Shown: positions 9,764 through 19,390 of the stretch, piece after piece
Layout: every line of letters begins with the position of its first letter
How positions within the stretch are numbered: the first letter of the stretch is position 1
Source of the DNA: Candidatus Micrarchaeota archaeon
GTDB lineage: Archaea; Iainarchaeota; Iainarchaeia; Iainarchaeales; JAGVWC01
DNA length: 29,485 nucleotides
Direction: 5' to 3'
Assembly (NCBI GenBank): GCA_043803815.1
Contig: JAZDJR010000023.1
Location: forward strand, 1-29,485
Notes under the pieces: generated by a model
Database searches by the model: none
Seen by the model: only the letters and a program-made list of their open reading frames with translations
What the model was told of the DNA's origin: nothing
Position numbers and translations under genes: made by a program

Positions 9764-9903
9764 GGGGCTGTAGTCTAGCCTGGTAGGATTCATGCTTTGG
9801 GAGAGCCCCTTTTCTTTTTAGGAAAAGAAAAGGCCCTCGGTTCAAAAGAAAACCCGTTGGTCCAAACGAGCATGTGACGGGGGTTCAAATCCTCCCAGCC
9901 CCA
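9764..9903 (+). tRNA. tRNA-Pro(TGG) with 67-nt intron at 37/38 (intron 9802-9868); CCA not encoded
   Basis: Acceptor GGGGCTG/CAGCCCC-A; anticodon stem CATGC/GCATG; T-loop TTCAAAT; canonical BHB (TTTG/CAAA helix, bulges GGA and CGA). Confidence 0.95.
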
Positions 9904-10140
9904 CAGCTTTTTTTGCATGGCAAAAAAACCTCCGTTTTGGGCACCGAATCAAGCAGTGCTTGATTGGCCCTTTTTGGCCAACAGCCAAAAATGGAAGCCC
10001 AAAAGGACCCTTGAAGCTTTGCTTCAAGTGGTGGGAAAAAATTGCCTTCGGCAACAGCTTTTTTTCATTCTGGAAAAAAACCCGGGAAAAACTTCGATTC
10101 TTTTTTCGGGTTTTCTTTCCAAGAAAAGTTTTGCGGGGAA
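9903..10140. repeat. Mosaic of short hairpins and triplex-type repeats
   Basis: At least six inverted repeats; ACAGCTTTTTTT at both 9903 and 10054. Confidence 0.75.
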
Positions 10141-10156
10141 CCGCTAATTTTAGTTT

Positions 10157-11401
10157 TTATTTTTTCGGTTGGCTCTGAAAATGAACCAGCATGTTCAGTC
10201 GGACAATGTATTTGTGCACATTTATTTTTTTTTCAATTTCTTCGGCTTCTATCAATAATTGGGCGGTTTTTTCGGGTGATTGGTTCGGTTGTGCCGCATC
10301 CACCACTTTGGCGCGGATTTCGTTGCGCAGCAGAAATTGTTTGACCGCGCTGTTCAGGATTTTTTTGTCGGTTTCAAACCGCCCCGTGATGCGGGGCGTT
10401 TGGTGGTCATCGTGGTAATACAGGCCGTTTTCGGATTTTGCCATAAGGAGTGCGGACTGGAATTTGATCAGTTTGGTTGAATGAAAGTTTTCTTCTTGTT
10501 GGAGAAATTCCGCGATTACGCTCGCGGTTCTCATGGGATGATGCTGGGGTTTGGCTACTGTTAAATGCTCGTTCTTAACTTGTTCCCGCATTTCTTTGGG
10601 ATTGGGCTCTTCCATTTGCTGGAGGCCGGGAAGTAGATATGTGCGTGCCAGCCTTTTGCTTTCCGCTATCTGGTTCTCCAGTTTTTGCATAGCCTTAAGC
10701 CGGGCTATAATCTGGATATGAATATCTTTGTCCTGTTGGACTTCATTTATTGAAAGCTGGTCAAACTCCGCGACAAGCGCTTGGATATGGCTGGTTACCC
10801 TGTCAAGCTGTTCGGGAGTAGCCCCTCGACGTTTGTATTCTGTGTATACTCCCTTGGCTTGCTGGATTTTGCGCGTTATTTCTTGGGGCTTTTCTGGGTG
10901 CGAAAGGGAAACTGCTGCGAGTTCTTTCCGCAGCTGGCCGATTTCATCGCGCCGTTCGCGCATGATTCGCGCTTGGTCCCACATTCCGGAATCATTGATA
11001 AAATTGCCGGTTACATTAGGCGTTTCGGTTTCAGGATACCAAAATTCGCGTTCGGTTTGAAGTTGCCTGGAAATGTGTTTCCAAAGCCGGGGGAATAAGT
11101 GGGATTCGTTGCGGAGAAAAACCGCCAAATCGGGCAATTGAAGCGCACGGTCCTTAACCCCGTGGGCTTTTTGTTCGCTAAGAAAATTAAACCAAGTCAT
11201 TTTTTTGGATTTTTCCTTGAAAGCGGAACGGCGCCGTGGAACTGCATCTCCAAAAACTACAAGCCGCCTTCCTTTCAACGCGTTTCGAGCGCGATTAAAG
11301 CTTTGCCGTGCGAATTCGGCATTTTTCTTTAAGCAAACCTTGGTTCGGATTCCGACATTTCGCATTTTTTTTCGAAGGAGCCTTCTTCCCGTTGCTGCCA
11401 T
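10157..11401 (-). CDS. Orphan coiled-coil protein with Arg/Lys-rich N-terminus
   Basis: 414 aa ORF; GAGGT just before ATG; no motif recognised. Confidence 0.75.
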   Translation of the reverse strand: MAATGRRLLRKKMRNVGIRTKVCLKKNAEFARQSFNRARNALKGRRLVVFGDAVPRRRSAFKEKSKKMTWFNFLSEQKAHGVKDRALQLPDLAVFLRNESHLFPRLWKHISRQLQTEREFWYPETETPNVTGNFINDSGMWDQARIMRERRDEIGQLRKELAAVSLSHPEKPQEITRKIQQAKGVYTEYKRRGATPEQLDRVTSHIQALVAEFDQLSINEVQQDKDIHIQIIARLKAMQKLENQIAESKRLARTYLLPGLQQMEEPNPKEMREQVKNEHLTVAKPQHHPMRTASVIAEFLQQEENFHSTKLIKFQSALLMAKSENGLYYHDDHQTPRITGRFETDKKILNSAVKQFLLRNEIRAKVVDAAQPNQSPEKTAQLLIEAEEIEKKINVHKYIVRLNMLVHFQSQPKK

Positions 11402-11482
11402 ACCTCATTTTGTTGCCCAGCAGATTAGAAAAAGGTTTGGTTGGCCGCTTGGCAGTTAAAAAAAAACGTTAAAAACAACAGT

Positions 11483-12691
11483 TTAATCCAGCTGAAAGCT
11501 TTTGAACGTCTTGAGGATTTCGTCGTTGTACGAGTCGTGCTGTTCCTGGGTTCCCGAAAAAACCACGCGAATCAGCTGACCGGCTTTTTTTGCAAACAGC
11601 GAATAATGCACCATCGGCTCGACCAAACCCGTTTTGGTGTACGTGACAAAAAAGTATTCCAAAACGCGGTCTTTTTCGCCCACCATAACGTCGGGATTTT
11701 GCTTTAAAAATTCCTCCACGCTTTCGTCCAAACTGAAAAATTCGTTGGTTTCATCCAAAAAAACCTCGAGCTTGAAACCGTCTTTTTCAACCGACACCAA
11801 GGCGCTTGAATCCGAATTTTTGGATTTTTCCCAGGCGGGATAATCCAATGAAAAAACCGAATGCGAAAAATGCAGGGATTCTTCTTTGGTTTCTGCGACC
11901 GCATCGGCCAAATCTTCTTTGGTTTCTGCCACCGCCTTGGCCAACGCCTCTTTGGCTTCTTCAAGGCTTAGCGATGAGGCCTTTTTCGGTTCGCTAATGA
12001 CGGGTTCTTCCGCTGGTGCGACGGGTTTTGGAATAAAGGGAATAGTCGCCATTGGTTTTTTCGGTTTTGGTTTTTTTTCGCGGTGAGTCTGCACAAATGA
12101 CGGTCCGCCAAGCGGGGACGATTCATTGATTGAAAACCCGCCGATTTTGGGTCTGGCCAAAGAAACCTTTTTCTTTGGTTTCTGCAAAACTTTCGGCTTT
12201 GCTTTGATTTTTATTTTTTTAAGCGGTTTAGCTGGCTTAATCAAAACGGGTTTTGGCTTGCCGCGACCTTTAACGGGCAAAACCCGCTTTGCGGCCGCGA
12301 TTTTTTTCTTGGAAACGATTTTTGGCTTTGGCGGCCGGTTTTTTTGCAAAAACGACTTGAGTTTTTCGATTTTGCCCTTGATTTTTTCCTGCTGGCCGCG
12401 CAGTTTTTTGATTACAACGGTTTTTTGCACCAATTGCGTTTTTCTGTTTTTAAGGCGGTTCAATCGCAGTTCCAGTTCGGCCTGCGAATGCGACTTTGTT
12501 TTTTCGGCTTTGGAAACCGCGCGCAGTTCTTCATCGATGGCCTTGGCCAAAGCGGACTGCAGCTGGGCATCCGATTGCTGCTCGGCTTTCTGAAGGATTG
12601 CAATCGCTTTTTGCTTTTGGCTGATTTCGCGGGTCAAATCAAAAACCTGTTTTTCCATTTCCATAATTCTGGATGGCGCATTATCCGTCAT
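11483..12691 (-). CDS. Coiled-coil, Lys/Pro-rich protein with C-terminal PsbP-like domain
   Basis: Heptad N-terminus, low-complexity middle, C-terminus FSLDYPAWEK...ILKTFKSFQL. Confidence 0.7.
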   Translation of the reverse strand: MTDNAPSRIMEMEKQVFDLTREISQKQKAIAILQKAEQQSDAQLQSALAKAIDEELRAVSKAEKTKSHSQAELELRLNRLKNRKTQLVQKTVVIKKLRGQQEKIKGKIEKLKSFLQKNRPPKPKIVSKKKIAAAKRVLPVKGRGKPKPVLIKPAKPLKKIKIKAKPKVLQKPKKKVSLARPKIGGFSINESSPLGGPSFVQTHREKKPKPKKPMATIPFIPKPVAPAEEPVISEPKKASSLSLEEAKEALAKAVAETKEDLADAVAETKEESLHFSHSVFSLDYPAWEKSKNSDSSALVSVEKDGFKLEVFLDETNEFFSLDESVEEFLKQNPDVMVGEKDRVLEYFFVTYTKTGLVEPMVHYSLFAKKAGQLIRVVFSGTQEQHDSYNDEILKTFKSFQLD

Positions 12692-13062
12692 TTTTTTCCC
12701 GCCTTTTTAAGCGCTTTATTAAAGCCGCGCTGCAACGATTCCAGTTCGCGCTGCAAAACTTTTTGCTCCCACACCGCGTTCATAATTTGCTGGGTTTTGG
12801 TTTGCTTGGACAGCGCCTTGATTTGGCCGCCGACTTTTTTGCGCACTTCCTTGGTCTGGCTCTCGGTCTGCTCTTCCCGTAACACCAATGAACGGTACGA
12901 TTGCCGCAATTGACGGTCAAGGTTTTGCTGGGCCAAAAACAGTTTTTTTTCAAGGGACAGCAAAGCGATTTCTTCAAGCACGATTTGTTTTCGCGTTTTG
13001 TGCAGCTGCTCTTCCAATTGGCCGACCCGCTTTAAAAAATCGTTTTCAACCACTTTAGCCAC
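12688..13062 (-). CDS. Coiled-coil hypothetical protein
   Basis: GTG at 13062 lies about 25 nt below a TTTATA box (13085-13090); stop overlaps the next start. Confidence 0.65.
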   Translation of the reverse strand: MAKVVENDFLKRVGQLEEQLHKTRKQIVLEEIALLSLEKKLFLAQQNLDRQLRQSYRSLVLREEQTESQTKEVRKKVGGQIKALSKQTKTQQIMNAVWEQKVLQRELESLQRGFNKALKKAGKK

Positions 13063-13170
13063 GATTACTATGACGATTTTTTGGTATAAATAGGTTTGGT
13101 CTGCGGTCCAAACACCATTTAAAAAACGATTCAAGCGCAATTTAATCGGAATTCACTGGCGTTTAATCGG

Positions 13171-13278
13171 TTGGGGCCGTAGCCGTAGCAGCCTTTTTAA
13201 TAAAAAGGCTGGCGAAAAAATAGTATCGGGCATTCTAAGAATGCCCGGTCGTATGCGTCGTAAATGGACCAACCATTT
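13171..13278. repeat. Duplicated tRNA 5' end (12 bp) plus double-hairpin element resembling the tRNA intron
   Basis: TTGGGGCCGTAG at 13171 and 13277; hairpins CAGCCTTTTT/AAAAAGGCTG and CGGGCATTC/GAATGCCCG. Confidence 0.8.
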
Positions 13279-13424
13279 GGGGCCGTAGTCTAGCCTGGTA
13301 GGATTTCAGCATGGGGAGAACCTTTGTCAAAGGTTCGCGAAAAATACGTTATACCCTTTTCAAGGGTACTGCGTATGCCATTGCCAGCGTGCTGAAGACG
13401 GGAGTTCAAATCTCTCCGGCCCCA
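13279..13424 (+). tRNA. tRNA-Pro(GGG) with 73-nt intron at 37/38 (intron 13317-13389); CCA not encoded
   Basis: Acceptor GGGGCCG/CGGCCCC-A; anticodon stem TCAGC/GCTGA; A32/U38; T-loop TTCAAAT; relaxed BHB. Confidence 0.92.
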
Positions 13425-13425
13425 A

Positions 13426-13497
13426 AATTACTGGTTTCTTTTCCCCAGGCTTTTCTTTTCCAAAGAAAAGGCTGGTGGACAATCTCTCCGGCCCCAA
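13426..13497. repeat. Triplex-type hairpin element followed by a 17-bp copy of the tRNA 3' end
   Basis: AATCTCTCCGGCCCCAA at 13409 and 13481; TTTCTTTTC-N6-CTTTTCTTT-N3-AAAGAAAAG between them. Confidence 0.85.
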
Positions 13498-13545
13498 CCC
13501 ACATTTTCGACTGCTGTATATTTTAATGAGAAGCCATATTTGAAT

Positions 13546-14436
13546 ATGATTCAATCAATCAAAGCGTACGGCTTTGCATTGCTATCCGTAATGCTTTGGG
13601 CAACCGCGGCCGCGGTTTCCAAACTGCTTTTGGGCAAAGGGTTAAATGCCCTGCAATTGCTGCTGTTCACTTCTTTTTTTGCCACGGTGTCACTTGTCCT
13701 GGTTGCGGCAAGCAACGGCAAATTAAAACTGGTAAAACATTTTTCCGTTAAAGAATGGATTCAGCTGGGCGCCATCGGAGCCATTGGAATTTTTTTGTAT
13801 CACATTTGTTATTTCGGCTCCCTGCAATATTTGCCCGCGCAGGAAACAACCATTATCAATTATTTGTGGCCGCTAATGACCGTGCTCATCGCGATTCCGC
13901 TTTTGCACGAATCGTTTTCGATTCGAAAACTTGGGGCAACGGTTTTGTCGCTGGCGGGAGTCTGGATAGTCGTATCCAACGGAAATATTTTTTCATTCCG
14001 CTTTGACAACGCTTTTGGCGTTGCTTTGGCGTTTTCAGGAGCCGTGCTATACGGATTGTTTGCGGTTCTGGGAAAAAAATCCAAGATTGACAAAACCTCC
14101 AGCATGCTGGCATACTGCGCGGTCACGTTTGCGTTATCCCTGATTTCGGTTCCGGTATTCAGCCGCATTCCGGCTATTTCGCTTTTGCAGTTAATTGGAA
14201 CTGCATGGCTTGGCATTTGCATCGGAATCGGCTTTTGGCTCTGGTTTTTGGCTTTGCATTACGGCGACACGGCTAAAATTTCCAATCTGGCGTATTTAGT
14301 CCCGTTTATTTCCCTGGTATTTGTGTATGTTTTATTGGCCGAGGAAATCATGTGGTTTTCCATTGCCGGCCTTGTGCTGATTGTGGCGGGCATTTTCGCG
14401 CAAACCTGGCCAAAACCCGATTTTAAACGGCAATAG
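13546..14436 (+). CDS. DMT/EamA family transporter
   Basis: About 10 TM in two repeats; INYLWPL, LAYLVPF, LLAEEI. Confidence 0.92.
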   Translation: MIQSIKAYGFALLSVMLWATAAAVSKLLLGKGLNALQLLLFTSFFATVSLVLVAASNGKLKLVKHFSVKEWIQLGAIGAIGIFLYHICYFGSLQYLPAQETTIINYLWPLMTVLIAIPLLHESFSIRKLGATVLSLAGVWIVVSNGNIFSFRFDNAFGVALAFSGAVLYGLFAVLGKKSKIDKTSSMLAYCAVTFALSLISVPVFSRIPAISLLQLIGTAWLGICIGIGFWLWFLALHYGDTAKISNLAYLVPFISLVFVYVLLAEEIMWFSIAGLVLIVAGIFAQTWPKPDFKRQ

Positions 14437-14480
14437 CGTTTGGTTTAAAATTCCCTCAATTCCTTGTATTATGACTAATC

Positions 14481-15956
14481 ATGCCCGAAACAAAACCCGA
14501 AAAAGTGACTTTTGCAATCGACAAGGAAGCCAATTTTTCCGAATGGTTCACTGAAATCATCAAGATCGCGGAACTCGCGGACCTGCGCTACAACGTCAAA
14601 GGATTTTTGGTTTATCAGCCCTGGTCGGTTCTGACCATGGAAAAAATGTACGATTTTTTGGAAGAACTTTTGCAGAAAAAAGGCCACAATCCGTATTGGT
14701 ATCCCGTACTAATTCCCGAGGGAAATTTAAAGATGGAAGCCGAGCATGTGGAAGGATTTGCACCCGAAGTATTCTGGGTAACCGAAACCGGCGACGGCCA
14801 AAAGCTTGAGGAAAAGATGGCTTTGCGCCCCACTAGCGAAACCGCGTTTTACCAGATGTTCGCCTTGTGGATTCGCTCTTACAACGATTTGCCGTTTAAG
14901 ACCTACCAGCGCGCGCAGGTATTTCGCTACGAAACCAAAGCCACGCGCCCGTTTTTGCGCAGCCGCGAAATTTATTGGATAGAAACCCACAACGCTTTTT
15001 CCAATCATGAGGACGCATTAAGGCAAATTCAGGAAGACATGAAAACCACCGTCGAATTCTTAACAGAATATCTGGGAATTCCTTTTATTTTTTTCAAGCG
15101 CCCCCAATGGGACAAATTCGCCGGCGCAATCAACACCTACGCCGCGGATTCCTTGATGCCGGACGGAAAAGTCGTCCAGCAGCCGTCCATGCACGATTTG
15201 GGGCAAAACTTTTCCAAAGCGTTTAACGTAACCTTCAAGGACAAGGACGGAACCGACAAATTCGCCTACATTACCTGCTTTGGGCCCGCCATTTCCCGCA
15301 TTTTTGCCTCGCTCATTTCGGTTCACGGCGACACCAAAGGACTGCGCTTTCCGTTTGAAGTCGCGCCAAAGCAAATCGTGCTTATCCCGATGGCGGCCAA
15401 CAAAGACCCGAACGTTTTGCCGTTTGCCCGAAAACTCGCGGAAGAACTGCGGTTAAGCGGCTACCGCGTGCACCTGGACCGGTCGGACAAAATGCCCGGC
15501 GAAAAGTTTTATTTCTGGGAAATGAAAGGCGTGCCGCTTCGAATCGAAATCGGGCCCCGCGAACTCAAAAACAAAAAACTCGTAGTGTACCGCCGCGACT
15601 TGCAGCAAAAAGAAACGATTAACGCCAAAGACCTAGCCGGCTGGATTCAAAAAACCGGAAAAGAACTTTCAAGCAACCTGCGAAAAGACGCCGGTCACCT
15701 GTTTGACAACGCGATTAAAGACGCGAATTCTTTTGAAGAACTCAAAAAACTCATCAACACCCGCGGATTTGTCAGAACCAATTTTTGCACCGACGAACTA
15801 AGCGCAAGCGCCTGCGCGGAAAAAATCGAAAAAGAGCTTTCCGCCAACGTGCGCGGACAAAGAGCAGAAAAAACCGAACAGCCCTTCGGAAACAAGACCT
15901 GCATTGCCTGCGGAAAACCCGCCAAAGTCGTACTGTACGTGGCCAAGCAATATTAG
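14481..15956 (+). CDS. proS: Prolyl-tRNA synthetase, archaeal/eukaryotic type
   Basis: LRPTSET, FRYETKATRPFLRSRE, HDLGQNFSKAF, HGDTKGL, anticodon domain WEMKGVPLRIEIGPRE, CIACG, terminal Tyr. Confidence 0.96.
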   Translation: MPETKPEKVTFAIDKEANFSEWFTEIIKIAELADLRYNVKGFLVYQPWSVLTMEKMYDFLEELLQKKGHNPYWYPVLIPEGNLKMEAEHVEGFAPEVFWVTETGDGQKLEEKMALRPTSETAFYQMFALWIRSYNDLPFKTYQRAQVFRYETKATRPFLRSREIYWIETHNAFSNHEDALRQIQEDMKTTVEFLTEYLGIPFIFFKRPQWDKFAGAINTYAADSLMPDGKVVQQPSMHDLGQNFSKAFNVTFKDKDGTDKFAYITCFGPAISRIFASLISVHGDTKGLRFPFEVAPKQIVLIPMAANKDPNVLPFARKLAEELRLSGYRVHLDRSDKMPGEKFYFWEMKGVPLRIEIGPRELKNKKLVVYRRDLQQKETINAKDLAGWIQKTGKELSSNLRKDAGHLFDNAIKDANSFEELKKLINTRGFVRTNFCTDELSASACAEKIEKELSANVRGQRAEKTEQPFGNKTCIACGKPAKVVLYVAKQY

Positions 15957-15964
15957 GTGCAATT

Positions 15965-16630
15965 GTGGAACTCAAAGCAGTTTTGTTTGACTTGGACGGC
16001 ACTCTCATCGACTCGATTCCGCTTCACAAAAAGTCGTTTCAGCTTTTGTTTTACAAATTCGGCCGGCGCCTTCCCGAAAAATCAATCAGCCAATACATCC
16101 GCTGGTCAACCGAAGAAATTTACCGAAAACTAAAAGTCGCGCAAAAACTCGGCTTGCCGATTGAAACGTTTTTGCGCTTGCGCCGGGAAATTTATTGGGG
16201 GCTCGTCAAAAAAAAGAAAAACCTCGAATTCAAATCGCGCACCGCTTTTTTAAAAAAACTCAAAAAACAAGGATTTAAACTCGCGCTGGTGACGAATTCC
16301 TCGCGCCAAACTACGGAACGCACCACCCCCAAGCGCGTGTTAAAACTGTTTGACTGCATCGCCACTTTTTCAGAGGTTTTGCACGGAAAGCCGGCTCCGG
16401 ACTTGCTGCAATTCGCGTGCCGAAAAATGAAACTCAACCCCGCGGAATGCATCATGGTCGGCGATTCGATTGTGGACCTGAAAGCAGCTGAGTCTGCAAA
16501 AATACGGGGAATTGGTTTTTGGGGAAAAACAGGGGCGTCTTCTTTTTCCGATTTGAAAAAGGAAAAACCGTTTAAGATTGTAAAAACCGTGCGGAAACTG
16601 AAATCGGTTTTGGATTCGCTTGGAAAATAA
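15965..16630 (+). CDS. HAD-family phosphatase (IA)
   Basis: FDLDGTLIDS, VTNS, KPAPD, VGDSIVD; GTG at 15965 after AGGTG. Confidence 0.92.
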   Translation: MELKAVLFDLDGTLIDSIPLHKKSFQLLFYKFGRRLPEKSISQYIRWSTEEIYRKLKVAQKLGLPIETFLRLRREIYWGLVKKKKNLEFKSRTAFLKKLKKQGFKLALVTNSSRQTTERTTPKRVLKLFDCIATFSEVLHGKPAPDLLQFACRKMKLNPAECIMVGDSIVDLKAAESAKIRGIGFWGKTGASSFSDLKKEKPFKIVKTVRKLKSVLDSLGK

Positions 16631-17359
16631 CTACATTTCGCCTTTTTTTCTTGCATATTCCATAATGGCCTGTCTTTCTTGAGGCGACAAGTTGCGCACA
16701 GTAAGTAATCCGTTCAGCGCGTTTTGGTGATAGGTTATTTGCCGGTCTACAAATTCGCGGTTTTTGGCGGAAAGAACGATTCTCAGTTCCTCGCACACTT
16801 GTTTTAGTTTTTGCCAATGCATGAGCTGTTTTTTTCCGCCGGCAATGATTTTCCGGTATGCACTTGACCCGGTTTTTCCTTTGCAATTGATGAGTGCGAT
16901 TCCAATGGCGTACTTTACGTCCATGTCCCTGTTGTTATCGCGAAACAGCGTTTCCCGCATCTTTCGCTGGTAATCGATTCCAAGAGGAACGAATTTTCGA
17001 AGGAATTCGCGCTGTTGTTCGGGAGTTTGGCGTTCCAAAGCCTGCAATTCGCGAAGCTGCTGTTCAATATAGTCCAGATTTGTTCGAAACAGTTCAATCG
17101 TTCGGGGGTCTGCCCTCAGTTTTTGGACTCGCTGAAGCGATAATTCCTGTTTTTCCCGTTTTCCGGAAAGTTCCGCAAAAATGCTTCCAACCGTGCGGTC
17201 CTCAATGAGTGCATTCATGACTTTGAGGGCGACTCCGATTCTGGATTGCGGAACGAACTCCGAAAACGGCTTTGCGCCGGCCTGCGGCCGAAAACTTTTC
17301 CGCCGCTGTTTTTCTTTCCTTTTTCTGCTTTGCTTATCCCGTCTTTGCTCGCGCGGCAT
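16631..17359 (-). CDS. Orphan helical protein with Arg/Lys-rich N-terminus
   Basis: 242 aa; MPREQRRDKQSRKRKEKQRRKSFR. Confidence 0.75.
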   Translation of the reverse strand: MPREQRRDKQSRKRKEKQRRKSFRPQAGAKPFSEFVPQSRIGVALKVMNALIEDRTVGSIFAELSGKREKQELSLQRVQKLRADPRTIELFRTNLDYIEQQLRELQALERQTPEQQREFLRKFVPLGIDYQRKMRETLFRDNNRDMDVKYAIGIALINCKGKTGSSAYRKIIAGGKKQLMHWQKLKQVCEELRIVLSAKNREFVDRQITYHQNALNGLLTVRNLSPQERQAIMEYARKKGEM

Positions 17360-17408
17360 ACTACTTACTACGATAAAATCAGGTTATTATTACTGCCGAA
17401 CGGCTCTC

Positions 17409-17870
17409 TTAAAAAATTCCCAGCCATTTTTTTCGCGGGGACAGCTGCAAGGCGTATTCGTCCACGACCGCGTCATCGATTTCTTTTTCCAAAGTCGAAA
17501 CCCAGACAAATCCCGCTTTTTGGTACATTTTTTGGGCGACTTTGTTTTCCCGCTTGACCAGTAACTCGACTTTTTCAAAGCGATTTTGCTTCAAAAACAA
17601 AATGGATTCTTTCAGCAATTCGGTTCCAACCCCTTTTTTTCGGAACCGAGGAAACACGGCGAGTCCGTTTAAGCGGACGATTTTGGCTGCCAGTTTTTCC
17701 AGTTCGATAAAACCCGCGAGTTTTTTTTCGCGCTCGATTTTAAACAAAAAAAAAGCGGGCAAATTCAGCTTGGCCTGAACCTGCAGACGCGGGTTCCGCA
17801 GGTAAGGAAACTCGGTTGCAATCAGTTCCTGCACCGGCTCCACGTCTTTTTCTTCCAGCGGTCCGAACAT
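17409..17870 (-). CDS. GNAT N-acetyltransferase (RimI-like)
   Basis: LAVFPRFRKKGVGTELL; ENKVAQKMYQKAGF. Confidence 0.92.
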   Translation of the reverse strand: MFGPLEEKDVEPVQELIATEFPYLRNPRLQVQAKLNLPAFFLFKIEREKKLAGFIELEKLAAKIVRLNGLAVFPRFRKKGVGTELLKESILFLKQNRFEKVELLVKRENKVAQKMYQKAGFVWVSTLEKEIDDAVVDEYALQLSPRKKWLGIF

Positions 17871-17874
17871 GCAA

Positions 17875-18558
17875 TTATTTTTTGGGCAAACGGTTTATAT
17901 AATCCAGAATTTCCCGGCTTGCGACCGCGCAGCCCGCGGTCTTGACGGCAAATAACGACGCTTCCAAAGTCGCGGGATTTTGGGAAAGCTCGTAGCCGAA
18001 CAAGTCGTGTTTATACGTCCACGCCAGCAAATCGCACGAGCGCACAATCAACGCGGACTTGAACTGCTGCCGAATCGGGGCAAGGGCGGCCTGGTTCACC
18101 GAAACTTTTTTGTCGTACTTTGCAGCAATGTGGTTTTGAAGGCGAAGCGGCTCTTCAACCAGCATGCGACACGTCCTTTCGTCGATAGCCATGGCGTCCG
18201 CCTGCAAAGACAAATACAAAGCCATGGTTTCGATTTCTCCGGCCTGCAGAATCGCCAAGGGTTTTTTTCCGATTAAAAAACTGTGATTGGCCCAGTCCGC
18301 GATTTTGGCTGCCCATTGTTTTGTTTCGCTGGTCGGCTGGACGATTTCCATCCATTCCATCTCGACGGCTTCGCGAATCCGCTCGGCGTTAAGCTCGAAG
18401 CGGTGAATCCGGGTGGGGGTTTCGACTGATTCGTCCCAAACCGACTGGGAAAGCAAAAACCGGCAGTCGGAATGGTCGTGCATGTGCATTAACAGGCGAA
18501 AAAAACATTTTTCGGAAAGCGAAATTAGAGTGCTGGAATCGAAAATAATGGCGTTTAT
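17875..18558 (-). CDS. PIN-domain protein; probable ATA start at 18558
   Basis: In-frame extension above the listed ATG gives IIFDSSTLI (first PIN strand and Asp); also SVWDE, AGEIE, IDER; GAGGTG 5 nt before ATA. Confidence 0.75.
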   Translation of the reverse strand: MNAIIFDSSTLISLSEKCFFRLLMHMHDHSDCRFLLSQSVWDESVETPTRIHRFELNAERIREAVEMEWMEIVQPTSETKQWAAKIADWANHSFLIGKKPLAILQAGEIETMALYLSLQADAMAIDERTCRMLVEEPLRLQNHIAAKYDKKVSVNQAALAPIRQQFKSALIVRSCDLLAWTYKHDLFGYELSQNPATLEASLFAVKTAGCAVASREILDYINRLPKK

Positions 18559-18740
18559 ATCAACACCTCGCCGTTGATTTTCGCGAAGCGATTTTCTTTT
18601 TCCCGGGTTTTTCTTTTTTGAAAAGAAAAAGCCGCGGTACTGGAATCGAAAATAATGGCGTTCAATTCAACACCTCGAAATTCGAATCGAAAATAATCGC
18701 ATTCAATTCAGCGCATTGACTTGGAACCGAAAATGGCGAT
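18533..18740 (-). repeat. Three to four tandem decaying copies of the PIN gene start with an inserted triplex-type element
   Basis: 38-bp copies at 18533 and 18640 (3 mismatches), 27-bp copy at 18684, degenerate copy near 18722. Confidence 0.85.
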
Positions 18741-18741
18741 T

Positions 18742-19308
18742 TCATGCCAGCACCTTGTCCAGCCGCTTTACCCTTGATTCGATTTCGGAAGCGGTTTTTT
18801 GCTCGTCGTGCATTTTGGTGTAGCCGATGTAATTGAACAGATCTTTTTTGTTCGCGCCGGTAAGTCCGGTGGCTTGGCTTAAACTAAGCCCCAGCGCGTA
18901 AAGCGAACTGGCCTGCTTGACCCTGCTTTTTTCCAATAGGTTTTGGACAAAATGCCCGCCTTGGCTGTCGATTTTGTACACGTGTTCCTGCAGATGGTCC
19001 AAGAGTTTTTCAAAAGCGGGAACGTTTTTTTGAACCAGCGCTTTTTGGGCGTCAGCCAAATCCATGCGAATATTTTTTTGGATAAACTTCCATCCTTTTT
19101 GGCCTTGCAAATGTTCCTTGGTCAAAAGCTTGTGCAAGGCATACGCGAGCACCGCCACTTCGGCCTGCAAAGAATCGTTTTCAAGGGATGCGCGATAAAC
19201 CGCTTGGTCCGCGATTTCGCGCAATTCACGGGCATTATTGGACGAAAACGCGGCCTGGATTTTCGCGATTTTTTTGGACAATTCTTCAAGCACAAAACAA
19301 ACACGCAA
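18742..19308 (-). CDS. Hypothetical helical protein upstream of the PIN gene
   Basis: 188 aa ORF, host-like codon use; start uncertain. Confidence 0.8.
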   Translation of the reverse strand: MRVCFVLEELSKKIAKIQAAFSSNNARELREIADQAVYRASLENDSLQAEVAVLAYALHKLLTKEHLQGQKGWKFIQKNIRMDLADAQKALVQKNVPAFEKLLDHLQEHVYKIDSQGGHFVQNLLEKSRVKQASSLYALGLSLSQATGLTGANKKDLFNYIGYTKMHDEQKTASEIESRVKRLDKVLA

Positions 19309-19390
19309 CCGCGGTTTTTAAGGTTTTAGCCCGCTTTTGGGCAAAGCGGATTCGCTGGATTTAAATAGTTCAATTCGGTATTTTTAGCAA

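Follow-up and report, generated by a model that had tools for sequence, protein, structure and literature searches.

Repeats of triplex-type geometry and tRNA genes in the window

The window, a 29,485-nucleotide stretch from a Candidatus Micrarchaeota archaeon, carries two intron-containing tRNA-Pro genes on the plus strand: tRNA-Pro(TGG) at 9764–9904 (Rfam tRNA model, 48.2 bits; aragorn with introns allowed), with an intron of 67–70 bases at the canonical position, and tRNA-Pro(GGG) at 13278–13425 (Rfam, 45.9 bits; aragorn), with an intron of 73–77 bases. The first-pass annotation had described three copies of a dispersed repeat of the form Y1, 6 nt, Y2, 3 nt, R. An exact search for this geometry (Y1 the mirror of Y2, R the reverse complement of Y2, tracts of at least 7) recovered all three: copy A at 10098–10127 (plus strand) with 7-nt tracts, copy B at 13435–13470 with 9-nt tracts and copy C at 18592–18630 with 10-nt tracts, each with loops of 6 and 3. 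The pattern is far above chance frequency, since 200 dinucleotide shuffles gave a mean of 0.015 sites against the three in the window (one site in 3/200 shuffles, more than one in 0/200). Genome-wide, the mirror arm was present on five asymmetric-tract pyrimidine/purine hairpins, and the six control arrangements (direct copy, R copy upstream or downstream, and others) were present on none.

In the 1.08-Mb genome, a family profile built from 15 seeds gave 21 matches with E values no higher than 1.3e-4. Copies B and C are members of a real family: they matched the profile at E 3.5e-9 and 7.7e-11, and their DNA folds (-13.6 kcal/mol, z -4.4, and -12.7 kcal/mol, z -3.0, respectively) were equalled in 0/200 shuffles. 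Copy A, by contrast, was not matched even at E 10. It has neither the CC..GG nor the GC flank, and its fold is weak (-4.4 kcal/mol, z -1.2; 25/200 shuffles fold equally well). It is not counted as a family member: either the geometry is all that it has in common with the family, or it is a marginal, decayed copy. The ViennaRNA folds contain the hairpin only and leave Y1 unpaired.

Copy B (13435–13474 with its flank, plus strand; TTTCTTTTC, CCCAGG, CTTTTCTTT, tcc, AAAGAAAAG, GCTG) lies between plus-strand direct repeats of 17 bases. The left one (13409–13425) comprises the final stretch of tRNA-Pro(GGG), which starts at the T-loop, and the right one (13481–13497; 17/17 identical by blastn-short) begins 6 bases from the hairpin foot. 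Copy C (18592–18634, plus strand; TTTTCTTTTT, CCCGGG, TTTTTCTTTT, ttg, AAAAGAAAAA, GCCG) is bracketed in the same way by plus-strand repeats of 38 bases at 18533–18570 (23 bases exact, 35/38 by eye) and 18640–18677, the latter 5 bases from the hairpin foot and followed by two further, diverged repeat units. The duplications reported to bracket several copies are thus present at B and C, whereas copy A is without such flanks.

The related copies that had been listed were of different kinds. The one at 10059 is a full family member on the minus strand (10055–10091; core match, profile E 7.8e-11 over 10045–10097), which on the plus strand reads CAGC, T7, loop, A7, CCCGGG, A5 and lies tail to tail with copy A. 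The one at 9808 is a variant element in the tRNA-Pro(TGG) intron (9803–9852, minus strand), read by eye and present as a hairpin in the folds, with a profile E of only 4.8; on the tRNA-sense strand a hairpin (T4CT5 / A4GA4GG), with its foot about 2–4 bases past the 5' splice site, is followed by CCCTCGG and an A4GA4 tail. Those at 13189 and 13318 are sister modules, and the one at 19324 was unsupported. In addition, a partial element without tail (CAGC, T7, loop, A7, CC; 9904–9930, minus strand) begins at the 3' end of tRNA-Pro(TGG) (profile E 1.6e-3 over 9897–9931).

Both sister modules consist of a hairpin plus an A-run tail. The first (13189–13220, minus strand; hairpin CAGCC-T5 / A5-GGCTG, GCG, A6 tail), read from the sequence, had a profile E of 0.63, and this stretch (query 37–71) had many matches across genomes of the same order. 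Its foot is abutted by a copy of the first 10 bases of tRNA-Pro(GGG) (GGGGCCGTAG) with a repeated CCGTAG (13173–13188, plus strand), a layout that recurs at a different tRNA in the relative locus L004. The second, supported by its fold, occupies the 5' end of the tRNA-Pro(GGG) intron (13318–13345, minus strand; hairpin AACCTTTG / CAAAGGTT, CGCG, A5), and its type is also found in the tRNA-Arg(GCG) intron on contig C14 of the same genome. Taken as a whole, the first-pass observation is partly confirmed.

Anatomy and distribution of the family

Copies B and C, the 10055–10091 element and the 9803–9852 variant belong to a family of elements of about 40 bases that is common to many DPANN archaea and of which we found no published description. 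Each element consists of a T-rich Y1, CCXYGG, a T-rich Y2, a loop, an A-rich R and G-C-Y'X', where Y2 pairs with R and XY with Y'X', and the G opposite G between the two helices is kept without exception. Among 242 anchored hairpins from this genome and fetched DPANN loci, the flank was complementary to XY in 175, all of which have G directly after R (175/175). The commonest combinations were CCAAGG/GCTT (84), CCCAGG/GCTG (39), CCAGGG/GCCT (31) and CCCGGG/GCCG (12), plus four rarer ones.

The third arm covaries with the hairpin. In 57 copies picked independently of Y1, a C in Y2 was mirrored by a C in Y1 at 66/88 positions, against only 3–10 of 47–88 when Y1 was slid by 1 or 2 positions. In 150 distinct copies C was mirrored at 212/239 positions, a value reached in 0/2000 shufflings of Y1 among the copies (mean 129, maximum 147), although these counts overstate the independence of the copies because related copies share descent. 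At least nine different placements of mirrored C occur, and at the free positions of a strict 28-position pattern 53 copies had T/T/A across the three arms, 64 had C/C/G and 1 was mixed, both states being found with all four main XY types. Despite shared descent, several C patterns and XY types recur among copies. Judged by sequence, the mirroring of Y1 and Y2 is the covariation that a pyrimidine-motif triple helix would require, and the earlier proposal that the arrangement permits such a helix is borne out to that extent.

The strict pattern matched at least 112 stretches, all from archaeal records and most of them titled as DPANN groups, against a chance expectation of about 0.004 if equal base frequencies are assumed. 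Of the 121 genomes that belong to the window's order, 62 contained the core pattern, copy number across the order ranging from 0 to 114 per genome, and the same pattern reversed gave 4 matches in all against several hundred forward. Distribution is patchy between related genomes, with the element in 0/11 genomes of one family and 10/10 of another. Conservation of the element sequence across phyla could also mean function. In loci that were chosen for carrying the element, copies occupy tRNA introns, directly adjoin tRNA ends or stand in intergenic DNA facing either way, and tandem copies about 50–55 bases apart occur in relatives (L053; contig 2 of G094).

Sites of the element, flanking duplications and the search for mobilising enzymes

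Copies within tRNA introns number 37, and in 34 of them the hairpin foot adjoins a splice site. With intron boundaries from aragorn that may be off by a few bases, the foot lies 0–7 bases from the 5' boundary in 30/33 copies opposite to the tRNA sense and 4–10 bases from the 3' boundary in 4/4 same-sense copies. The tRNA transcript accordingly receives the purine-tail strand, not the Y1-Y2-R strand, in 33/37 cases. Genes for the splicing endonuclease and RtcB ligase are present in the genome.

The proposed link to duplications extends beyond the window. Direct repeats of at least 12 bases flank 28/149 elements but 10/530 shifted controls, about ten times more often, and repeats of at least 14 bases 20/149 and 5/530, although some of the 28 are pieces of neighbouring elements. 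Of these 28 elements, 15 have a repeat no more than 8 bases away from the hairpin foot and 5 have one that close to the tail; in the cleaner cases one repeat abuts the foot. The repeats are 12–40 bases long, a clean one accompanies only about one fifth of the copies, and the bracketed inserts are gene-free and about 43–160 bases long. Non-tRNA sites have such repeats too (L041, L071, L100, and 70738 on contig C29 and 9647 on contig C36 of this genome). Of 121 tRNA genes, 11 are preceded by a same-sense copy of their 5' end and 9 are followed by one of their 3' end, about 4–5 of these 20 being neighbouring paralogous tRNAs; copies on the wrong side number 4 (all paralogs) and antisense copies 1.

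In a strain about 93–95% identical, copy B and its repeat are present, while the tRNA-Pro(GGG) intron is replaced, the stretch 13317–13388 giving way to 23 other letters (joint 13316 to 13389). A related genus has neither element nor repeat after tRNA-Pro(GGG), beside an orthologous ProRS gene (66% identity). No pair of filled and empty sites was found within a strain for either copy B or copy C; both strains have copy B in place, and the contigs are interrupted within copy C. When the genome, which is 85.6% complete, was searched for donors of the bracketed inserts, none carrying the same spacer turned up.

In line with the earlier remark that no mobilising enzyme is visible, no transposase, integrase or reverse transcriptase family was found on the window's contig. 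Elsewhere the genome contains two Phage_integrase genes and an IS200-type Y1 transposase gene, whose insertion sequence carries GC-rich hairpins of a different kind and has no copy of the element beside it. A 17-base copy of the tRNA-Leu(GAG) 3' end delimits what is likely an integrated element of 30 kb. The occurrence of the element does not follow that of HUH transposase or reverse transcriptase genes, eight element-rich genomes had no Y1_Tnp match, and no dedicated enzyme was found among the families searched.

Origin of the element and comparison with known systems

The covariation, the range of 0–114 copies per genome, the excess of flanking repeats and a contig on which no transposase, integrase or reverse transcriptase family was found support one of the two readings offered by the first-pass annotation, and we consider the element to be probably a structure-defined, non-autonomous insertion element, for which we infer both the fold and the way of moving. 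The selected fold would be the hairpin with Y1 in its major groove (T.A-T and C+.G-C triplets), formed in single-stranded DNA or in RNA of the same strand. The element may spread without a transposase of its own, perhaps via host replication or repair: a newly copied strand could fold and the polymerase switch template, or the element could be taken up where a break leaves staggered ends. In tRNA genes the helix beside the splice-site bulge would come from the element's hairpin, and the element may persist there because the splicing endonuclease and ligase can remove it. Against insertion counts that, to our knowledge, no transposase gives repeats of such varying length.

It is unlikely that the element is instead an immobile cis-element under selection, acting as a two-way transcription stop, as an RNA-processing landmark by tRNA ends or as a triple helix that protects RNA 3' ends. 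Such a role would suit a sequence kept across several DPANN groups, whose hairpin foot lies 0–2 bases from the 3' end of tRNA-His, tRNA-Ala(TGC) (C4) and tRNA-Ala(CGC) (C29) in this genome, with the partial copy beginning at the tRNA-Pro(TGG) end; a crude ORF caller places 26 gene 3' ends but 10 gene 5' ends among the neighbours within 30 bases, and the T-run comes first in either reading direction. However, the copy numbers within one order and the all-or-none families speak against it, intergenic copies take either orientation to the flanking genes, some of them between divergent gene starts, and most intron copies give the transcript the purine-tail strand. Since 887 kb of called coding sequence holds 3792 runs of at least five T in its sense strand, an oligo-T run by itself cannot act as a strong stop in this genome. 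The flanking duplications, too, would be left unexplained.

A dedicated mover, either a tyrosine integrase at tRNA-type attachment sites or a DPANN-specific recombinase with the inserts as minimal cassettes or leftovers, seems quite improbable to us. Three 3'-end repeats of this genome (Pro-GGG, Arg-GCG and Ala-TGC) reach from the T-loop to the end of the tRNA, as is classic for integrase attachment sites; the two integrase genes and the likely integrated element at tRNA-Leu(GAG) also fit. The inserts, however, measure only about 43–160 bases and hold no gene, the repeats vary from 12 to 40 bases and occur at non-tRNA sites, and in two relatives (L060, L090) the repeat runs past the tRNA end.

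Very doubtful is the other reading offered at first pass, a non-inserting structure that stalls forks, with errors of adjacent replication making local duplications. It would account for the enriched repeats and the tandem copies in relatives, and bacterial intrastrand triplex repeats have been linked to rearranged loci (Holder et al. 2015, PMC4666352). Slippage, though, should yield tandem units that include the element, whereas here two repeats bracket a single copy; element and repeat are both missing in the related genus, and the arrival of some 20–110 similar copies at unrelated sites is left unexplained. Finally, a chance origin in a genome rich in A and T runs (7219 sense A runs of at least five besides the T runs, in the same coding sequence) is next to negligible for copies B, C and the family, where the shuffles, control geometries, reversed pattern and strict-pattern count refute it, and would apply only to copy A, which taken alone could be chance.

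The element resembles several known systems. The bacterial intrastrand triplex repeats PIT, BoxC and TMECO consist, in the description of PMC4666352, of three consecutive blocks, two of which pair as a hairpin while the third is the mirror of one hairpin arm; TMECO, from Proteobacteria, is G/C-rich (CCCTCNCCC, N3-6, GGGNGAGGG, N3, GGGNGAGGG) and folds in vitro, and A/T-rich motifs were treated there largely as chance. Going by that account, these repeats and the DPANN element alike have many dispersed copies, sharp copy-number differences between close relatives and a link to unstable loci, and the complementary strand of the DPANN element (Y, loop, R, loop, R) has the block order of TMECO. 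Unlike TMECO, the DPANN element is A/T-rich, has C at one or two positions and is framed by invariant CCXYGG and GC flanks; it is archaeal, fills tRNA introns and has flanking target duplications.

REP/RAYT and IS200/IS605-derived elements are likewise short extragenic hairpin repeats without coding capacity; the DPANN element differs in that it abounds in genomes without a Y1_Tnp match and does not flank the genome's own IS200-type insertion sequence. As far as is known, IS200/IS605 insertion leaves the target unduplicated. RNA triple helices capping the 3' ends of transcripts (ENE, MALAT1) combine two U-rich tracts and an A-rich tract, with C+.G-C among U.A-U triplets. The DPANN element has the same block order, and in a few copies (L004, L067, L069 and one on C8 of this genome) its A-rich arm similarly stops immediately ahead of a tRNA 5' end or 3' splice site; unlike them, it has no fixed orientation to transcription, and most intron copies are antisense for the triplex fold.

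Closely similar introns in different isoacceptors are also known from the transposed tRNA introns of Thermoproteales (Fujishima et al. 2010), and in the summary given in PMC4090602 this similarity is taken to mean that introns were gained at the DNA level, by a mechanism left unexplained there. Compared with what is summarised there, the DPANN introns differ in lineage and sequence; their shared unit is a defined structured module of 40 bases, which is found away from tRNA genes too, lies in both orientations and is accompanied by flanking duplications. The element thus offers a testable lead on the spread of such tRNA introns.

Geometry and family membership of the window copies

The first-pass annotation had described three sites in which a pyrimidine tract Y1, its mirror Y2 and a purine tract R complementary to Y2 follow one another: 10098-10127 (copy A), 13435-13470 (copy B) and 18592-18630 (copy C). 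We searched the 1.08-Mb genome bin that contains the window for exact instances of this geometry, in which a pyrimidine tract Y2 is preceded at 3-10 bases by its mirror Y1 and followed at 2-7 bases by its reverse complement R, every tract being at least 7 bases long. Seven sites were found genome-wide. Three of them lie in the window and coincide exactly with copies A, B and C; the loops measure 6 and 3 bases. The pattern occurs well above chance frequency: against the three sites observed, 200 dinucleotide-preserving shuffles of the window gave a mean of 0.015, with three shuffles containing one site and none containing more. Because A/T runs are very abundant in this genome, the geometry test was also conditioned on the actual hairpins of the same genome, taken as 88 strand-wise records of pyrimidine/purine hairpins with asymmetric tracts: among them the mirror arm was present at 5 sites, and six other arrangements were each found at none. 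In the 887 kb of called coding sequence of this genome, homopolymer runs of at least 5 bases number 3792 for sense T and 7219 for sense A.

A family profile built from 15 aligned copies (T-run Y1, CCCRGG, T-run Y2, a loop often with a small GC stem, A-run R, GCYG) gave 21 matches in the genome of the window at E values up to 1.3e-4. Copies C and B were recovered with E values of 7.7e-11 and 3.5e-9, respectively, and a partial copy directly after the tRNA-Pro(TGG) gene (9897-9931) scored 1.6e-3. Copy A was missed by the profile even at E 10 and lacks the family flanks; the z-score of its hairpin energy is weak (-1.2, with -4.4 for copy B and -3.0 for copy C). The proposal that the three sites form one family thus stands for copies B and C, and copy A shares the geometry only. 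The sites listed with them as related copies fared unequally: that at 10059 is a full member (10045-10097, minus strand, E 7.8e-11) and that at 9808 is a variant within the tRNA-Pro(TGG) intron, those at 13189 and 13318 are sister modules (hairpin and A-run tail), which are met again in relatives and in a further intron, and that at 19324 is unsupported. A chain of at least five hairpin modules fills the 240 bases after tRNA-Pro(TGG) (9905-10140); some of these resemble, by eye, modules of the 168-base tRNA-Tyr intron on another contig of the genome, C14, e.g. GGCCCTTTTTGGC...GCCAAAAA.

Covariation of the hairpin and of the third arm

We collected hairpins in which the anchor CC-XY-GG precedes a pyrimidine run able to pair with a purine run further downstream, in the genome of the window and in fetched DPANN loci. 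The final counts are without the duplicate loci L003, L005 and L007, whose DNA is also present in other loci; some intermediate counts still include them. In 175 of the 242 anchored hairpins, R is followed by G, C and the complements of Y and X, mostly as CCAAGG-GCTT (84), CCCAGG-GCTG (39), CCAGGG-GCCT (31) and CCCGGG-GCCG (12), along with four less common types. All 175 have G as the base that follows R, so that a G opposite G is always retained between the two helices; this G would Hoogsteen-pair with the first C after Y1.

The arm Y1 follows the hairpin. A strict 28-position pattern leaves three positions unconstrained, namely the final base of Y1, the opening base of Y2 and the final base of R. 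The combination there is T/T/A in 53 copies and C/C/G in 64; one copy is mixed. Both states were seen with all four main XY types (a count that includes duplicate loci). Among 57 copies that had not been selected through Y1, a C in Y2 was mirrored by a C in Y1 in 66/88 cases, compared with 3-10 of 47-88 when the arm was slid by 1 or 2 bases; for T the corresponding values were 295/334 and 189-233 of 261-334. In 150 distinct copies C was mirrored in 212/239 cases; when the Y1 arms were redealt among the copies, the mean was 129 and the maximum 147, and 0/2000 trials reached 212. C is mirrored in nine or more distinct placements, and Cs at least 7 bases from the CCXYGG loop are mostly unmirrored. 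The third arm, which was the core of the first-pass claim, thus holds across the family, where the copies share descent and 66/88 and 212/239 do not count independent events. One mirror rule recurring over different C patterns and XY types is nevertheless difficult to explain in another way.

The arrangement of an intrastrand triplex, with two Watson-Crick blocks, a third block mirroring one arm and short loops, is found in copies A, B and C and, as mirror covariation, throughout the family. The mirroring of C and T across copies shows that Y1 is maintained as the parallel complement of R, as T.A-T and C+.G-C triplets would require. In our reading of the sequences, an antiparallel Y1-R hairpin would be incompatible with the T-type copies. 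The predicted fold of the element would be an intrastrand triple helix, probably formed in single-stranded DNA. Purine-motif triplexes are not known to form well in RNA. As to which strand folds, 12 G-T and 8 A-C mismatches were counted, favouring neither clearly. Copies between protein genes are found in either orientation relative to transcription, and this variability speaks against a role in host RNA. With a crude ORF caller, orientation at gene ends was without clear asymmetry, and 41 of 140 non-intron copies (duplicate loci included) fell within called ORFs, which shows that the caller is rough; these context counts come from loci picked for carrying the element. The idea of an oligo-T terminator was set aside, T runs of at least 5 bases being common in coding sense strands.

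tRNA introns, flanking duplications and distribution of the element

With default settings ARAGORN reported no tRNA in the window because introns were disallowed. When they were allowed, two genes with introns of ~70 bases were found by both ARAGORN and Rfam, namely tRNA-Pro(TGG) at 9764-9904 and tRNA-Pro(GGG) at 13278-13425; Rfam at gathering scores found nothing further in the window. About 20 of the 34-35 tRNA genes detected in the genome have introns, of 19-168 bases; many of these contain an element module, and a near-identical intron element is shared by the genes for Ala-TGC, Ser-GGA, Leu-TAA, Arg-TCT and Glu-TTC. Fourteen of the 21 profile matches lie in a tRNA gene or at most 150 bases away, in DNA that by our arithmetic makes up ~1.3% of the genome. 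The other seven are more than 150 bases from any detected tRNA, and the element is thus not confined to tRNA or rRNA genes. Genes for a splicing endonuclease and the RtcB ligase are present in the genome. Intron load, estimated from tRNA match lengths in three element-rich genomes and two that lack the element, showed no clear relation to copy number; one genome (G061) has 31 copies yet few long tRNA matches, under a threshold that misses long-intron tRNAs.

In all loci together, which were picked for carrying the element, 37 copies lie within tRNA introns, with boundaries taken from ARAGORN; gene calls here are crude, and the genomes are metagenome bins. Thirty-three of the 37 copies put the purine-tail strand into the tRNA transcript, and in 30 of these the foot (the base of the hairpin) lies within 0-7 bases of the 5' intron boundary; of the three that deviate, two are second copies in an intron that already has one. 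The four copies in the opposite orientation keep the foot 4-10 bases away from the 3' boundary. In loci L040, L058 and L091 an intron of 47-50 bases consists of the element with 3-4 bases on each side and nothing else. In the genome of the window, the foot is also found 0-2 bases past the 3' ends of tRNA-His, tRNA-Ala(TGC) and tRNA-Ala(CGC). The foot is thus turned towards the exon or the tRNA end and the tail (the Y1 side) away from it. The predicted folds of the two pre-tRNAs of the window extend the anticodon stem. The simplest reason for the orientation would be selection, if splicing works only on copies with the helix beside the splice-site bulge. At G000:C33:2807-3187 in the same genome, a tRNA-Arg(GCG)-like gene has a 287-base interruption (ARAGORN with a 300-base intron limit) that encodes, by eye, Cys-x2-Cys and His-rich motifs of the HNH-endonuclease kind; this may represent a homing-type endonuclease within a tRNA gene, or the gene call may be false.

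It had been remarked that several window copies are bracketed by duplications of tRNA or gene ends, and this generalises. Direct repeats of at least 12 bases, excluding low-complexity sequence, bracket 28/149 elements compared with 10/530 control intervals shifted by 400 or 700 bases; for repeats of at least 14 bases the counts are 20/149 and 5/530. Among the 28 bracketed elements, in which some of the repeats are pieces of neighbouring elements, the repeat lies at most 8 bases from the foot in 15 and at most 8 bases from the tail in five. Clean repeats were seen at copy B (17 bases, the 3' end of tRNA-Pro(GGG)), at copy C (23 bases exact, 35/38 overall) and at tRNA-Arg(GCG) (18-19 bases), tRNA-Ala(TGC) (18), tRNA-Trp (22) and tRNA-Ser(GGA) (13-18), as well as at non-tRNA sites in the same genome (contig C29 at 70738, 17 bases; contig C36 at 9647, 14) and in loci L041 (23), L071 (38) and L100 (26). 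Of 121 tRNA genes, 11 have a same-sense copy of their 5' end upstream and nine have one of their 3' end downstream, ~4-5 of these 20 being neighbouring paralogs; wrong-side copies numbered four, all of them paralogs, and antisense copies one. The repeats in the genome of the window end within 1-2 bases of the mature tRNA ends, and those in loci L060 and L090 extend at least 8 bases beyond. Upstream of the ORF at 17875-18489, the window has four ~38-base units (GAATCGAAAATAATGGCG... type, 18530-18745), which may be regulator sites; copy C separates the first two, which are nearly identical, and the last two are diverged and adjacent.

An assembly error behind the duplications is unlikely, since the structures are shorter than the reads and an independent contig of a related strain holds copy B with its repeat. 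The contigs of this strain, ~93-95% identical, span 13050-15326; copy B and its repeat show a 2-base deletion in a T run there, and 23 other letters stand in place of the tRNA-Pro(GGG) intron stretch with the 13318 module (13317-13388). At copy C the contigs of three DNA runs are interrupted (18609/18610, within the copy), so that filled and empty alleles are not distinguished there, and the joint of 9918 to 10033 was left out, its shorter side having only 28 letters. In another genus of the same family (locus L002), tRNA-Pro(TGG), tRNA-Pro(GGG) and a ProRS gene 66% identical to that of the window are adjacent; tRNA-Pro(TGG) again has an element at the 5' splice site, and tRNA-Pro(GGG), with a 20-base intron, is followed by neither element nor repeat. 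An additional transporter gene between tRNA and ProRS in the window makes this comparison imperfect. ProRS was the sole synteny anchor, as tblastn of the EamA gene and of a 150-aa ORF against the relatives' loci gave no match. The two tRNA-Pro genes, 14 bases apart in L002, are separated in the window by three minus-strand ORFs (10157-13140; 414, 402 and 150 aa) without Pfam, NCBIfam or PHROG family and with hairpin-module clusters on both sides; this region may be an inserted island. The six ORFs beside the window copies matched no NCBIfam or PHROG family except for one weak match.

In a species-level genome collection, the strict 28-position pattern was found in at least 112 stretches, compared with ~0.004 expected by chance according to our arithmetic. 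The matching records are archaeal, with no bacterial record title among the matches listed; the titles there read Iainarchaeum, Micrarchaeota, Aenigmatarchaeota, Woesearchaeota, Pacearchaeota, Nanoarchaeota, Undinarchaeota or only 'archaeon', and one listed match is a 4-kb contig titled Methanosarcinales. A viral contig collection contained none. Among 121 sampled genomes of the order of the window, a 16-base core was present in 62, and the pattern read backwards gave four matches in all. Copy numbers range from 0 to 114 per genome (114 in G094, 60 in G115, 56 in G077, 31 in G061 and 21 in the genome of the window), and whole genome families stand at 0/11 or 10/10 for the core. Such patchy, burst-like spread is the pattern of selfish repeats, unlike that of a housekeeping signal. 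Tandem arrays with a period of ~50-55 bases occur as three copies in L053:550-680 and as five copies in G094 (contig 2, 40317-40546).

Candidate mobilising systems and comparison with known elements

As the first-pass annotation had noted, the window contains no visible mobilising enzyme; all transposase, recombinase and TnpB-type matches are on other contigs. An IS200-type Y1 transposase is encoded in the genome (85.6% complete) at G000:C21:1362-1856, with a cut second copy at a contig end (G000:C8:5-130); it is probably a multi-copy insertion sequence that breaks the assembly. The genome also has two tyrosine recombinases and a sub-threshold TnpB-type match, and in this bin neither a reverse transcriptase nor a Cas_Cas1 match was found. 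One tyrosine recombinase gene (58225-58719) adjoins tRNA-Leu(GAG) (59185-59290) on contig C29, where a 17-base copy of the 3' end of this tRNA lies ~30 kb from the gene; the interval 29403-59290 seems to have the classic signature of an integrated mobile element.

Derivation from REP/RAYT or IS200/IS605 systems would call for a Y1 HUH transposase whose presence follows the repeats, which is not seen. Y1_Tnp is present in 35/121 genomes of the order, and it is missing from eight element-rich ones (G061 with 31 copies, G109 with 28, G003 with 16, G011 and G067 with 14 each, and G002, G057 and G069 with 13 each). The GC-rich sub-terminal hairpins of the insertion sequence in the genome of the window are unrelated to the element, which was not found beside it. 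A reverse transcriptase-dependent retroelement was likewise rejected: RVT_1 occurs in 17/121 genomes, mostly in families with few or no elements (5/11 in each of f3 and f10), and in 0/10 genomes of each of the element-rich families f20 and f30. If an integrase had duplicated tRNA attachment sites, an integrated element encoding it would lie between the repeats; the inserts are of 43-160 bases and gene-free. Integration by Cas1, of the casposon or CRISPR-like kind, is disfavoured by the variable repeat length and by the missing Cas_Cas1 match in the 85.6%-complete genome. A MITE would have terminal inverted repeats, which one hairpin with a tail lacks, and a fixed target repeat rather than 12-40 bases.

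We infer that the element inserts, rather than merely sitting in place, and that host replication or repair moves it. A nascent strand would copy a donor element, fold once the hairpin is complete, leave the template and re-anneal slightly upstream at the original site. This model would account for junctions that end exactly at the foot and for a tail-side spacer and a duplication that both vary. When the donors of eight bracketed inserts were sought with blastn-short, similarity was confined to the 18-37-base core and no matching spacer was found. A bolder reading, which we regard as rather unlikely, is that the element represents a new class of transposase-free mobile DNA, whose own fold ejects the polymerase just past the foot, so that restart nearby copies the element and duplicates 12-40 target bases. 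Under this bolder reading tRNA genes would tolerate the element because the tRNA splicing machinery can excise it, and it would be the raw material of the long DPANN tRNA introns.

No description of the element was found in full-text searches, supplementary motif lists aside. As far as we searched, this is an A/T-rich intrastrand triplex motif backed by base-triplet covariation and not by pattern counts alone, and it extends intrastrand triplex repeats from bacteria to archaea. A close known repeat, TMECO, is described in Holder et al. 2015 (PMC4666352) as a G/C-rich purine-motif consensus of Proteobacteria. The element has the same block order, and TMECO is likewise multi-copy, strain-variable and tied to unstable loci; the element differs in being A/T-rich and in its loops, sequence, archaeal host range and tRNA-intron habitat.

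The transposed tRNA introns of Thermoproteales have one intron sequence among unrelated tRNA genes, with a mechanism stated to be unknown, and the origin and movement of archaeal tRNA introns have been open since then (PMC4090602). The element is a defined 40-base unit with a clear structural signature, readable target junctions and 0-114 copies in relatives, which makes the question of intron spread testable. Like these introns, it provides an intron sequence common to unrelated tRNA genes; unlike introns of the Thermoproteales type, it is also at home outside tRNA genes.
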